From NCBI GenBank assembly GCA_020137815.1, contig CM035351.1, positions 8,122,001-8,186,000 of the forward strand: DNA of 64,000 nt. Direction: 5' to 3'. Position numbers and translations under genes: made by a program. Positions within the stretch are counted from its first letter, which is position 1. Each line of letters starts with the position of its first letter. The notes below the pieces were generated by a model, which was given only the letters and a program-made list of their open reading frames with translations, made no database searches and was not told the DNA's origin. This document shows positions 17,001-32,000 of the stretch, one piece after another. Source of the DNA: Hormiphora californensis (taxonomy: Eukaryota; Animalia; Ctenophora).

Positions 17001-20000
17001 TGAACACAATACTTAACATGGGGCCCCGGGATTCTGAACTTCTTCAGCGGGAGTCCGCCGCGCACAACTAGTGTTGAAAAGTTTGCTTTCGATGTATCAG
17101 AAACTGCGCGCCTACCACGAATTAACAAAACCCACGCTCCCATGGGTCGACCCTCGGTCTCTTTCCAAGGAGACGGTCACTTCGTTTTTTATCTCTTTTA
17201 AAATTATAAAACAACCTCACGTGGTGTTTGCATGCAAAATTTCCTGCTCGCAGCTCTTGTAATACCCACAATCTCTCTCTTGCTTGTTCTCATTCCCTCT
17301 CTTTTGTCTCCTCTCTCTTCCTTTACTCGTTTTCCAATTTCCTATCTTCGTGGCATGCTAACGAGGGCGTACCTGACATTGCGTTCAGTTTCTCATTCAC
17401 TTTTCGTTGGCATGCAGCGGTCCCAGGAGAGAAATTAATTGCAACTTTGAATCTAGTGGAGGAAAGGAAATTAGCACATACCTTAGCTTAACCAATTATA
17501 TTTTGTTTTGGTCAGCAGGAGAAATTATTAGTTACTAGCAGGGGAGTATAATTGATAAATAATTAGATAATTAGTTACCTGTTAGGGTCTGTTTCAGAGA
17601 CTTGAGTGTCCTCATACATCATGAGTACAATTTGAGTATGGTACTGGGCCTCTCTCACACTACCTAGATAGTCAACTGCCTGTTTCCAAGTTGGGTCATC
17701 CGTCTAGGGAGGGCGGGAGTTTAACTTCTAATACCATGTTTTGAAAAGAGAGAGAGAGAGAGAGAGAGAGAGAGAGAGAGAGAGAGAGAGAGAGAGAGAG
17801 AGAGAGAGAGAGAGAGAGAGAGAGACTAGAGAGAGAGAGAGAGAGAGAGAGAGAGAAAGAGAGAGAGAGAGAGAGAGAGAGAGAGAAGAGGAGGTCAATC
17901 AGTTGTGTTGTTATTTGCGGTTAATATTGCGAGCTCCGTAATTAGTCTCGAATTTCACGACATAGACGACCGCGACCAACAAACCCCAGCCAGCCCTACC
18001 TACCACCACAGACCAGCAACAAAGGACCAGCCACCTACATCCCCTACCTACATTCTCAAATCAGATAAGATCGTTCATTCTATATTCATTGGTTACTATT
18101 TATTATTGTTGTTATCCGGTTGTGTCCAGCAGGAAGGGTGGGCAGTATTTAGGGCACGGCGTCCTTTTTTTTTTTCGTTGTCCCTGGCCTCTGTCTCCCT
18201 CCCTGGGTTGGCTCCAGCTTAGCTGCCCCCTCCTCTTTGTTGTGTTTGTTCATATTCTTTACTGTGCTGGTAAGCGCAATGTTGCCCTGTCAGCCTTTCC
18301 GTCTTTGGTATCTCGTTCTGGGCTGTTTGGTAGGTGGTCCGCAATTCTCTTGGGCCGTGGTTGGGGTTCCAGTTCCTGTGTTATATCACACTCACTTTGT
18401 AGTCCTTAGAATTTAGATCTCACCCACTCACCAGGTCTTCTTTTGGAATTTCCTGTTTTATATTTATTCCTTTCTCATCAAGAGTTGAGTTCTTTCCCTT
18501 ATAACATGGGTGCTTGTGGTGGGGATACGGTGTCGGTGGGGACCGGTAGGGCGTACCGTATATATATATGTATATGTATATGTATATATGTATATGTATG
18601 TATCTGTATGTGTGTATTCGTGTGTGTGTGTGTGTGTGTGTGTGTGTGTGTCTCGGTGTCCGTTGTGATCGGCTGCCGTGTTGTTCGGGCGCCGTCTTCC
18701 CACTACAAGCAGCAATGTAATAATATTTTTCTCAGCTTCTGTTTTCCAGTAACATAGGTATTCATCTAACCCTTTCGCTTTTCTCTGTACACCGTACAAG
18801 CGTACGCTCTAGACCTCCGAGTATAGTGGCATCCTCATTTGTCTGTTAGTTGTTAGATAATAGCTGAGTTAGGAGAGTAGTAGAGTCCCGAGTAGAACTT
18901 CTCTTTCAGGTCCCAGGCGTACAAGTAGCACCGCCCTTTTGACTGACCCTGGCTGATAGCCTCACAAAGGACCATCTCCATACTGACTTGCTACACTCGC
19001 AAAGGAAAAACGTTACCTATCCAGACCGAATACTGATTCAATCAGTTGATCCTGTCAATGGCCCCTGCATTCCCTCAGGACTAGTTCCTTCCCCTGGTGT
19101 TCATCTTTCTAGGGCATCTAGTGATCACCGCATCGAGTTTACCATCGTACCCGTCCCCTTCTCACCCACTTCACCCTACCCCTCCTTCAGTTGCTCCCAC
19201 TATTCCATGGTACCTTTCTTACCCTCCAGTTTTCAGGTCCAACTCTCCATCCCATCATTTAATTTCCCTCCTTCTCAGGTATCATTCAATCCATGGCAGA
19301 ATTCCTCTCCCCCAGCGTGTAACCTTCTGCTCTCCCCACTACGGTTTAGGCTGATTATGTGACATCTGTCCCAATCATGATAATTCGTTTACTGAGTACG
19401 TCCATCTCTGATGACAATTAGCTGGAGATTGCCGTTGTAACTTTTACCGGGGCCCGCTGTATACCCTCTCCCTATCCTTTTCTTGTAGTATAGCCCCTAA
19501 CTCCCTTTTCCGCCTATTTCTATTATGGTGATGGAATTTTCCAATCACAATTATTAAATTTTCAACTCTACTTTCCTTGACAGGGCGACCCGTCTCGCAT
19601 GTCACTTTTCGGTAATGGTCCTAACGACCATTTCCGCACCCCCCCCCCCCCCCAGGTTTTTACCCCGAAAGTGACTTCCGGATTGGAGCAATTATCAAGT
19701 AAATCTCCCTTATCCGGCAATCCAATCTAAACTTCCATGCACTCTGCCCAATCAGCTAATTAGAACTTTCTACTTTGGGCGGAAGTGCGGGCCAGATCCG
19801 GGTTCTGCACAACTTTCCGACTACCCTCGGCTCACTCCAGTCTGTTGAGATCCCTCGTGCTGAAGGAGTTTGCTGCCTCTTCTCTCAGCCTCCCCCGCTT
19901 ACCTCCGCTTATAGGTCTCCTTGGCACATTGGTCACAATACCCTTCATCAGTACCAGCTCTGTTTCATTTAACCAGTCACACCTAGTTCACTCTGCCGTT

Positions 20001-29000: not shown

Positions 29001-32000
29001 GTAAGATCAAGTCGGCAGCCAAAACGTGGTCCCTAACTCAGCTGCCTTCACACCATACTCAGCTGAAGGAAAAGCTGAAATCGACCAACCATCTGATAGG
29101 CCACGTTTTCCCCCTAATCCAAGGCAGATCTTCAAAAGACCCCCTCCCATCCACTAATGTTGCCAACTTCCTGGCGAACAGAGGCAATCTTGGGATTTTC
29201 CTCCACAGAAGAGGAATAATAAACTCCCCGGCATGCAGATTCTGCGGAATGGAGGTGGAAGACAATAGCCATGTCCTATGTTTCTGCCCTGCTCTATCTC
29301 GGACCAGAGCCAAGCACTATCAATCCCTATCCCTACACCCTAACACAGTCGCAACATGCAACCTCTCTACCCTCGATTCCTTCTTATCTGACTGTAAGGT
29401 AATGGATTCTCACCCTGACCTCCTACCAGCAGACTAACCACCTCGCACATAGTTCACCATCTCGGCCCCTTGTTTTGTGCTCCTCGGATTCGGCGTACTT
29501 CATGCTGTTGGACTCTCTCATCGTGTGCGTGAACTCTCCCCCAGTAGGGCTCTTGTTTTTTTTTTCTTCTTTTATAATTTATTAGTAGTGGATTTTCTAT
29601 AGTTTTCTTTGTGGTCCATACTTCTATTTATTTCACCCCAACTATCCTCAGTGTCTTTCCTTCTCTACACCCCTCCTTATTTAATCATATCTCCCTCTCC
29701 CTCTCCCTCTCCTCCCTCTCCCTCTCCCTCTCCCTCTCCCCTCTCTCCTCTCCCTCTCCTCTCCCTCTCCCTCTCCCTCTCCCTCTCCTCCCTCTCCCTC
29801 TCCCTCTCCCTCTCCCTCTCCCTCTCCCTCTCCTCTCCCTCTCCCTCTCCCTCTCCTCATCCCTCTCCCTCTCCCTCTCCCTCTCCCTCTCCCTCTTCCT
29901 CCTCTCCCTCTCCCTCTCCCTCTCCCTCTCCCTCTCCCTCTCCCTCTCCCTCTCCCTCTCCCTCTCCCCTCTCCCTCTCCCTCTCCCCTCTCCCTCTCCC
30001 TCTCCCTTCTCCCTCTCCCTCTCCCTCTCCCTCTCCCTCTCCCTCTCCCTCTCCCCTCTCCCTCTCCGCTCTAGCCTCTCCTCCCTCTCCCTCTCTCCCT
30101 CTCCCTCTCACCGTCTCCCTCTCCCTCTCCCTCTCCCTCTCCCTCTCCCTCTCCCCTCTCCCTCTCCTCTCCCTCTCCGGCCTCGTCCCTCTCCCTCTCG
30201 CCTCCCTCTCCCTCTCCCTCTCCCTCTCCCTCTCCCCTCTACCTCTCCTCTCGCCTCCCCCTTCCCTCTACCTCTCCCTCTCCTTCGTCCCTCTCCCCAG
30301 TCTCCCTCTCCATCTCCCTCTCCCTCGCTCCCTCTCCCTCTCCCTCTCCCTCTCCCTCTCCCTCATCCTCTCCCTCTCAAAACAAAAACCTCCTCCCTCT
30401 CCCTCTCCCTCTCCCTCTCCCTCTCCCTCTCCCTCTCCCCTCTCCCTCTCCCTCTCCCTCTCCCTCCCTCCCCTCTCCCTCTCCCTCTCCCTCTCCCTCT
30501 CCCTCTCCCTCTCCCTCTCTCGCTATCGTCAATACGATGATAGGAGCCAGCCGGAATGTTATCTTTATATGCAATGAGTATATTGATTCTATCCAACCTA
30601 GCCCCTACCCACCCCTTCCCTTCTTCCTAGCCCCAACCTGGTGTCTGACACCCTCCCCTCTACTCAAACCAAGACGACAGACGCTTTGGCAGACAAGACG
30701 GCACTCCAGTGGGCCCCAACGGCACTCCAACTGGGCCCAAATGACATTACCCATGACAAGCAGTGGGCTCCCCCTTACACTTTGGCACATATTCGGATTC
30801 CTGATTGAATACTACCGAAGTGTCTGTAAGGTGTGGCGGTCCGGGTGATGTTGACCATGCCGGGAGCATGTGTCTCGGTTGTCAGGTGCAATCCACCTGG
30901 TTTCCGTTTTGGCAAACCTCAGCTTAGTATCCAAAAAAAAAAAAAAAAAAAAAGAGAGAGAGAGAAAGAGAGAGAGAGAGAGAGATAAAGATTTCTCACC
31001 GGGCAAAGACCGGCGTATCGCATAATGTTAAGGAATGAATGGATTAGAGACTCAGAAGCGAAGTAGAGACGCGTCCTCACATATCGGCCAGGGGACAGAA
31101 CGCTTGATGAACAGTACCTGAAGGAAATCACTAATTATGATCCTTAATCACATTGTTAATTATCATGACTAGTTATCGATGGCCCACACTACAACATGGT
31201 TATTGGTTTTATTGTTTTCTTTTGGCCGCCCAGTTAGAGGGAAGTTTGCATGAAACAGATGAACACACACACACGCTGTGTACCAAGTATCGGGCCGAGT
31301 TTCCGGGAGTGTCTGGAATCACAGGCACGTGCTCTATTTCATGTGTATAGTGTGTAGTAGCAAGAGGGCTAACATGATACTTGAACGGGAGTTCAAAGAG
31401 ACAGCACTGTGAACACTAGTTACACCCTAACAGTTAACAAGTTTCAACTTATAATATAGCCTATTATAGGGTTAACAGTTACATTTGGTGTTAACAACTC
31501 TGTCTACATATAACTCACGAGGGGTTAAGCTGGAAGGTGTTATCAGTGTTATCATCAGTGTTAACCATCTTCAGATCAGCCATAATCTTCTTGACCAGGG
31601 GTGTTGCTATCACCCGACCGATCTCTACTTTCTCTGCCTTAGTTATACCGTACTCCTAATAAATAGAATAGAGAGGAATAGATCTCAGGGATGGAACGAA
31701 CTTCCTGCACTAGTTCTCAGTTTTTCTTGTTCTTACTACCCCTTAGTTACCCCTCTAGTTACCCATCTAGTTACCCCTCTAGTTACCCCTCTAGTTACCT
31801 GGGGAACAATAAGGTCAGCCAGGGGCTTGACACTGTAGTACAACTGGATAGTTTTCTTCAGGCTCAGCTTCTGGTTATGTTGTACATCATACTTGATATT
31901 ATCAAATATATCTGGAATCTTGCTGATGTCAAAAGACCCATCAGCGTGTCGGAAATCCTTCTCCAGTTTAGACCATCTTCCCAGCATCAGCAGCACACTT

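Follow-up and report, generated by a model that had tools for sequence, protein, structure and literature searches.

How can a retrotransposon express its only protein when the open reading frame (ORF) lies behind a 7.9-kb leader, and how does this leader still reach new copies? The question is raised by a single-ORF, RNase H-bearing retrotransposon of the kind without long terminal repeats (non-LTR), which spans ~13 kb (17899..30953, forward strand) in a 64,000-nt stretch of the genome of the pleurobrachiid comb jelly Hormiphora californensis (GenBank assembly GCA_020137815.1, contig CM035351.1, positions 8,122,001 to 8,186,000; hereafter the window). As non-LTR elements use their own RNA as the template for new copies, they normally lose introns and keep short 5' untranslated regions (UTRs). 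Judged from its sequence, the element probably depends on splicing for the expression of its one protein, and the tandem array that fills most of the leader is a real and family-wide feature. The parts of the element on which this answer is built are as follows.

17899..18269, forward strand: 5' end and putative non-coding exon 1, free of ATGs, closing at the donor-like CTG/GTAAGC
18270..19964, forward strand: remaining unique leader, with a TA/TG microsatellite at 18558-18651 and acceptor-like sites
19559..19574, forward strand: spliced-leader-like piece that agrees at 15/16 positions with nt 12-27 of the pleurobrachiid spliced leader as published
19655..19964, forward strand: possible promoter segment found in the full-length copy only, containing CCAAT, GGAAG and GGGCGG words
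19965..25731, forward strand: array of ~109 units of 46 bp, from Tandem Repeats Finder (TRF) and anchoring
22085..22340, forward strand: insert 1 (253 bp), with an exon-like 83-nt cassette at 22207-22289 that has an acceptor and a donor
23076..23331, forward strand: insert 2 (253 bp), cassette at 23198-23280
24018..24273, forward strand: insert 3 (253 bp), cassette at 24140-24222
25756..25777, forward strand: splice-acceptor-like site, a pyrimidine tract plus CAG, in frame with the ORF ATG and 24 nt upstream of it
25802..29437, forward strand: intact 1211-aa ORF with APE endonuclease, reverse transcriptase (RT), RNase H and a C-terminal CCHC motif

The ORF is open from stop to stop between 25694 and 29437, and its first ATG is located at 25802. 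An earlier note on this DNA had described an intact APE-RT-RNase H-CCHC frame from this position, and Pfam matches to Exo_endo_phos_2, RVT_1, RNase_H and, weakly, zf-RVT bear this out. All catalytic motifs are present; the RT has LADD where YxDD is expected. APE and RT in a single ORF, a poly(A) terminus and the lack of an LTR place the element among the APE-type non-LTR retrotransposons. The view that no ORF1 precedes this frame also held: the longest stop-free runs on the forward strand of 17899-25801 comprise 160, 147 and 165 codons, and of 22 frames scanned (21 of the 36 leader frames of at least 60 aa, plus one 3' frame) 19 had no Pfam match at E<=1, while the three others gave weak, unrelated matches below the cut-off. 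The leader is rich in start codons, with 21 ATGs in 17899-19964 and eight in 19965-25801. Scanning of an RNA with many upstream ATGs should fail; because 29 of them precede the ORF ATG, it should fail on the full-length RNA of this element.

More than 100 copies of a 46-bp unit had been reported before the ORF, which was confirmed as ~109 units at 19965-25731, interrupted by the three inserts. TRF gives 123.8 copies because the inserts are counted in, while anchoring yields 108 anchors; 94 of the intervals between them are exactly 46 bp long, seven are 45 bp, three are 299 bp (a unit plus a 253-bp insert), and 48, 50 and 98 bp occur once each. The full-length units (74 of 94 distinct) deviate from the consensus by 8.2% and from each other by 13.5%. 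They contain 12.7% G at a GC content of 46%, and the observed/expected ratio (o/e) of CpG is 0.18. The unit was said to carry a TAG, which applies to 78 of the 94 full units and not to the others, 11 of which have a TAA variant; likewise, the consensus indeed lacks an ATG, but eight ATGs nonetheless occur between 19965 and 25801. The three inserts are mutually 99.3% alike.

The proposal that the array RNA acts as a ribonucleoprotein scaffold in place of ORF1p found no support: the array folded no better than shuffled sequence in any of eight windows (z -0.7 to +1.7), no Rfam family matched it, and the number of units ranges from 14 to 109. A structured unit RNA was rejected since folding does not surpass that of shuffled sequence, and descent of the unit from acceptor modules of the leader was rejected because the scores lay inside the shuffle range in seven of seven regions. 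The 15 weak Rfam matches in 1-32000 included no ribozyme of the hepatitis delta virus-like or hammerhead type, and the unit pattern had no match in metagenome contigs.

The same leader, unit and 3' tail recur at the start of the window.

1..3051, forward strand: copy 1, an ORF-less derivative with leader, 14 units, hexamer remnant, tail and poly(A), followed by (GA)28

Copy 1 had been taken for a second copy of the element; the shared parts stand, but it is an ORF-less deletion derivative and not a second full copy. Its 5' end lies beyond the window, and its array occupies 1739-2387 (14.1 copies) with a unit consensus identical to that of the full-length copy. The leader is joined directly to the array at the equivalent of 19643, and the array directly to the remnant of the hexamer repeat, of which less than 30 nt are retained; the array-to-tail junction shows a 5-nt microhomology, ATCAT. 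Because of this microhomology, and because the ORF lacks a separate poly(A), the junctions identify copy 1 as a two-deletion derivative of the long form. Insertion of an autonomous long interspersed nuclear element (LINE) into an element resembling a short interspersed nuclear element (SINE) was ruled out, as there is no internal poly(A) or duplication. Identity between copy 1 and the full-length copy amounts to 231/234 in the tail and 1488/1629 in the leader, where indels of 1, 2, 2, 4, 5, 14 and 43 nt are found among others. The tail of copy 1 also holds a ~183-bp palindromic insertion (2480-2662) flanked by 15-bp direct repeats, another mobile element.

Contigs from sequencing run X4, which possibly represents the source sample, and from runs X6 and X7, which derive from one other sample, agree with the claim that the array travels with the element: they contain leader-array joints, an array-tail end and a diverged leader running into the array. 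The 19643-to-array joint reaches a depth of 2926 in X6 and 1036 in X7, a loose end in X6/X7 runs from the array into the hexamer, and two further X6/X7 contigs of 801 and 768 bp likewise run into the array from a diverged leader (15 differences over 140 nt); the array sides of these joint contigs are only 26-30 letters long. In X4, copy-1 variants were found at depths of 453-635, the ORF at 46-50 and a contig specific for the full-length leader at 13. Judged by these depths, the ORF-less leader-array-tail family is the commonest carrier of the array, and the leader-array link, as dated by the diverged contigs, predates a split of ~10%. The unit was not seen outside the element in the contigs, and continuation into unlike DNA was observed in none of three DNA runs; array contigs are short, the array being visible only as edges of 1 and ~3 units, with 18 of 98 loose ends shown. 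Summed array depth exceeds leader depth ~360-fold in X4 and ~910-fold in X6 before correction for a 10-30-fold overcount; such rough ratios do not call for a large free satellite, and summed depth is not copy number. X6 and X7 are nearly devoid of ORF words, X6 having given only short diverged pieces, but gaps in contigs prove nothing; similarly, 19689-19933 is uncovered in all runs, and coverage holes are not evidence of absence. X4 and X6 additionally contain a further diverged family with internal deletions, seen as short ORF pieces at ~26063-26194, 26376-26513 and 28820-29043.

Splicing had been one of the functions suggested for the array, and high-scoring unique sites around and inside it do support its removal, whereas the AGs within the unit itself reach only low scores (median 2.9, maximum 6.5). 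Sites were scored with a matrix built from 13 acceptors and 12 donors of the host gene in whose intron the element resides. The acceptor at 25777 ranks third among the 420 AGs of 17899-25801 with 8.4 bits, compared with 1.5-7.7 bits for the host acceptors and at most 7.0 for the 263 AGs inside the ORF. Among 546 GTs, the top four scores belong to the donors of the three cassettes and to 18269, whose donor-like CTG/GTAAGC is conserved in copy 1 (position 271). Other strong acceptor-like sites of the leader are located at 19190, 19236, 19278, 19488 and 19655. An acceptor of this kind within 30 nt upstream is found for 44 of the 956 forward-strand ATGs of the window, and this filter is passed by the element ORF and by three of four host ORFs tested. 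The first exon candidate, 17899-18269, has no ATG where 4.4 are expected (P 0.005, 1000 shuffles; P 0.01 for copy 1), and its 5' end carries an initiator-like TCAGTT. If this candidate exon is joined to 25778, with or without the cassettes, the first ATG to appear is in weak context and lies 5 nt ahead of that of the ORF. The sites 19278 and 19655 read AG/GT and score both as acceptor and as weak donor; they are possible recursive splice points.

Based on these signals, the acceptor at 25777 is probably used, be it by a cis or a trans route, and we tentatively favour a scheme in which the array-bearing 7.5 kb would be spliced out onto it to give the mRNA and the template would be the unspliced 13-kb RNA. 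Transcription would start at the element 5' end, and the AUG-free first 371 nt, ending at donor 18269, would be joined to acceptor 25777, possibly stepwise via the three 83-nt cassettes; alternatively, a host spliced leader would be added at the same acceptor. The unspliced RNA would be copied, so that the array passes into new copies, and spliced copies would be dead ends, as promoter parts lie in the removed stretch. Spliced L1 integrants are described as dead ends through the loss of promoter sites (PMC5860796). By recognising the conserved 3' tail, the element protein would thereby also copy the ORF-less family. The array itself would be mostly a minisatellite, free to grow since ribosomes never scan it, and kept G-poor and unstructured. 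It has the traits of a passenger, with 14 to 109 units, 8.2% divergence, no folding excess and other minisatellites in the window, and a related pleurobrachiid genome is reported to consist of 13% tandem repeats (PMC8527503).

Several observations weigh against this scheme. The pyrimidine-rich 5' region inflates chance acceptor scores, nine of the 88 ATGs of the element pass the acceptor filter, and the stronger acceptors at 19190 and 19278 lie between donor 18269 and 25777. The three host ORFs that passed the filter are BTB paralogues and thus not independent, and the ORF for TFIIH p52 failed it. Furthermore, the lack of AUGs had caught attention before it was put to the test, GGTAAG or GGTGAG turns up in 23% of shuffles, and the donors (12) and acceptors (13) of the matrix were picked by eye from translations. 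The inserts may represent a captured host exon without a role in the element. Finally, both derivative types retain the array, and only seven gains of G stand against 58 gains of C; neither array retention nor the rarity of G gains is predicted for a pure passenger. An exon 1-to-ORF or leader-to-ORF end at 25777 was absent from six X4 loose ends, which is a weak negative because contigs drop rare forms. The single run presumed to be RNA contributed no contigs, which speaks neither for nor against the scheme.

Trans-splicing to a spliced leader (SL), with the whole 7.9 kb as an outron and the leader added at 25777, could make the mRNA instead of cis-splicing, which we regard as fairly unlikely. 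In a related pleurobrachiid, at least 56% of Iso-Seq reads carry a spliced leader (PMC8527503), and intronless host ORFs of the window have acceptors 6-13 nt before their ATG; however, these could also close ordinary 5' UTR introns. The element contains a 16-nt piece of the published leader, expected 6e-5 to 8e-5 times in its own leader region, and the copy 1 equivalent (1655-1670) matches at 16/16 positions, all such matches being judged by eye against the sequence printed in PMC8527503. A second leader-like 16-mer, however, lies outside the element, in a host intron at 17065-17084 on the minus strand (also by eye), so that these fragments occur more often than the chance model predicts; spliced-leader fragments may have been scattered by reverse transcription. 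The 3' part of the published leader was not found in the window. The absence of the promoter from a trans-spliced mRNA would explain the persistence of the long form, and the LTR element Cer1 offers a precedent, its short RNA being SL1-spliced and its long RNA unspliced (PMC3315495), but trans-splicing leaves both the AUG-free first 371 nt and the conserved donor unexplained. Because of this exon and the donors, cis-splicing is put slightly ahead; the two share acceptor 25777, and both may occur.

What the array does is a separate matter, and its status as a functional module is unproven. Possibly the template RNA requires it in cis, as a mark of unspliced RNA for copying, comparable to the tandem repeat of gibbon LAVA or to an intronic packaging signal of a retrovirus; this role is compatible with splicing, but the balance is against it. 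Every mobilised form seen retains the array, namely the full copy, the copy-1 family and the leader variant with 15 differences in 140 nt, and the unit consensus is the same in both window copies; yet the 8.7% divergence of the leader would lead one to expect unit divergence of about the observed size (8.2% and 3.4%), so that the unchanged consensus needs no selection. In addition, folding revealed no structure. The mutation pattern is asymmetric: A>G changes affect one of 10 A sites and T>C changes 13 of 15 T sites (P 2e-4), parsimony counts two A>G against 45 T>C events with G>A and C>T balanced, and the implied equilibrium G content is 5.5% in the array compared with 21.7% at fourfold sites of the ORF. 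The rare A>G in the array does not fit simple drift; selection for a G-poor RNA, RT error and host transcription on the opposite strand remain as sources of the bias. However, the events are not independent and the 12 units of copy 1 show no such asymmetry (A>G 3, T>C 2); where present, the asymmetry could as well stem from an error-prone RT with a non-aromatic xxDD, the fourfold sites being strand-skewed too, or from opposite-strand host transcription. In LAVA elements, a variable number tandem repeat (VNTR) is described as setting mobilisation efficiency (PMC4432496). An internal promoter in 19655-19964 or at the array end, which would start a shorter ORF RNA as in TART, is improbable. The segment is confined to the ORF-bearing copy and holds CCAAT, GGAAG and GGGCGG words, and TART is reported to start near the 3' end of its own 5' UTR (PMC1636488), but these words are short, and a start in 19655-19964 still leaves 5.8 kb and eight ATGs ahead of the ORF. 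The unit itself is CpG-poor and contains none of the three words; no positive evidence emerged for the array as internal promoter, as had been proposed. It is just as improbable that the splice-like sites are by-products of pyrimidine richness and the array junk in a bloated, barely expressed copy. The element does carry further unstable repeats, and its ORF contigs in X4 are 10-fold shallower than those of the derivative leader; in contrast, the ORF is intact with all catalytic motifs, and the poly(A) and flanks look young. The 74 distinct units already present in this young insertion imply that the long form was copied in its entirety.

The 3' part of the element, its flanks and the surrounding intron comprise the following features.

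17747..17890, forward strand: (AG)72 tract in the 5' flank, likely target (tandem-repeat scan)
29690..30519, forward strand: (TCTCCC)n, ~136 copies, 830 bp, in the 3' UTR (tandem-repeat scan)
30520..30953, forward strand: 3' tail (414 bp) and poly(A)20, with 231 of the last 234 aligned bases identical to copy 1
30954..30985, forward strand: (GA)6 AA (GA)9 in the 3' flank (sequence inspection)
17705..30999, minus strand: host intron carrying the element, 240 nt without it and 13.3 kb with it

All three visible element ends adjoin (GA)n, and because (GA)8+ runs make up only 364 of the 64,000 window bases, (GA)n targeting is likely, resting on two insertions. The (GA)n-AA-(GA)n pattern common to both flanks is possibly a target-site duplication. 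The fold of the 3' tail is not significant (z -1.57). The hexamer TCTCCC is the one present at the 5' end of SVA elements, and it may be speculated that as pyrimidine RNA it could base-pair with GA targets. The element is inserted antisense in an intron of a multi-exon His_Phos_2 gene on the minus strand (window 16500-36000), presumably PPIP5K/Vip1-like, whose introns apart from the swollen one measure 78-726 nt.

Among 1.84 billion representative proteins, the six best matches of the ORF are all Pleurobrachia bachei gene models (34-93% identity), followed by the nearest non-ctenophore proteins with 25-31% identity. In a quick RT tree of 77 rows (the window ORF, 72 of 150 listed matches and four others), the ORF and the six P. 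bachei models form a long-branched clade (Shimodaira-Hasegawa-like approximate likelihood ratio test, SH-aLRT, 99), which is nested among RNase H-bearing relatives. The aromatic residue of (Y/F)xDD, typical of non-LTR RTs, is absent from all seven clade members (L, L, L, V, V, Q, D); among 144 other rows, a rough pattern gave Y in 81 and F in 42. The nearest non-ctenophore relatives are presumably LOA/Lian-like by their motifs, and RNase H lies downstream of the RT as in the LOA clade, but no tree row carries a clade name. With no named LOA anchor in the tree, the element is filed as LOA-like only, and membership of LOA is not claimed. Some LOA members have a gag-like ORF1; none was found here in the frames scanned by Pfam. 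The PDB search matched only R2 and L1 RTs and RNase H, and no loci were obtained by protein search of metagenome contigs or alignment search of viral contigs. No description of the family or layout was found in the literature covered, to which Repbase, Dfam and key papers that may bear on novelty did not belong, and the family is likely undescribed, Repbase and Dfam lying outside the comparison.

Several known systems resemble the element in part. The LOA clade (LOA, Bilbo, TRIM, Lian, CiLOA) shares the APE-RT-RNase H order, and Lian has a single ORF. The differences from this clade are the ctenophore host, the long-branched group of seven with its non-aromatic xxDD, the 7.9-kb leader with an array and the poly(A) end in (GA)n. 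All LOA elements known at the time of one survey have RNase H after the RT (PMC2790886). SVA and LAVA elements are described as non-autonomous, with a central VNTR of 30-50 bp, a CCCTCT-type hexamer and poly(A) (PMC4432496, PMC5753468), and copy 1 is likewise non-autonomous with a central VNTR in this size range. Unlike in SVA/LAVA, however, the non-autonomous form arose by deletion from an autonomous parent in which the VNTR is present too, the hexamer is located 3', the unit is G-poor, and Alu or SINE-R parts are missing. Also lacking are a 5' hexamer, an Alu-like domain, a GC-rich VNTR, a hominoid host and an L1 partner; the likeness is convergence in layout only, not kinship. Kibi and Koshi are Tx1-type elements, Waldo and Mino R1-type. 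These APE elements are listed as targeting microsatellites, Kibi TC, Koshi TTC, and Waldo and Mino AC (PMC3812793); the (GA)n at the end of both window copies is the same duplex as TC, with two insertions seen here. In L1 SpIREs and Cer1, spliced and unspliced RNAs of one element also meet different fates, but splicing is a loss in L1, whereas the only protein would depend on it here, and Cer1 is an LTR element. The pairs L1Tc/NARTc and ingi/RIME are alike in that an autonomous element is accompanied by a shorter, non-autonomous one in a host with trans-splicing (PMC1874656); L1Tc, however, yields unspliced transcripts from a 77-bp promoter and has no long leader or array. Tandem repeats as such are reported to be common in retrotransposon UTRs (PMC9659126).

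Elsewhere in the window, long uninterrupted ORFs at 40700-58542 and 7006-7776 encode tubulin, three BTB paralogues, TFIIH p52, HORMA and tetraspanin proteins, and a 588-aa ORF among them has no Pfam match. Most of them show a branch point and pyrimidine-AG just before the ATG. The TFIIH p52 ORF is 99% identical to a gene model with P. bachei naming style. Other minisatellites are located at 14517-15685 (41 bp), 12717-13695 (164 bp), 47546-47783 (22 bp) and 62546-63035 (96 bp), and a hairpin at 4154-4282 with a weak match to a microRNA model is probably a palindromic element.

Taken as a whole, the locus could represent a (GA)n-targeting, ORF1-less LINE clade with a retrovirus-like split, in which splicing, in cis or with the host spliced leader, would yield the mRNA, the G-poor array would mark the unspliced template, and an SVA-like parasite would keep promoter, array and tail; in this full form the idea is unlikely. 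If the scheme were true, an active element would have to splice away 7.5 kb to obtain its only protein and yet pass this region on, and it would show how a LINE can separate message from template without ORF1p. It would also show whether host trans-splicing lets transposon leaders grow and favours parasites. With the autonomous parent at hand, the origin of SVA-like VNTR elements would become open to a natural test, and the altered RT motif of the clade would be linked to a measurable mutation bias.

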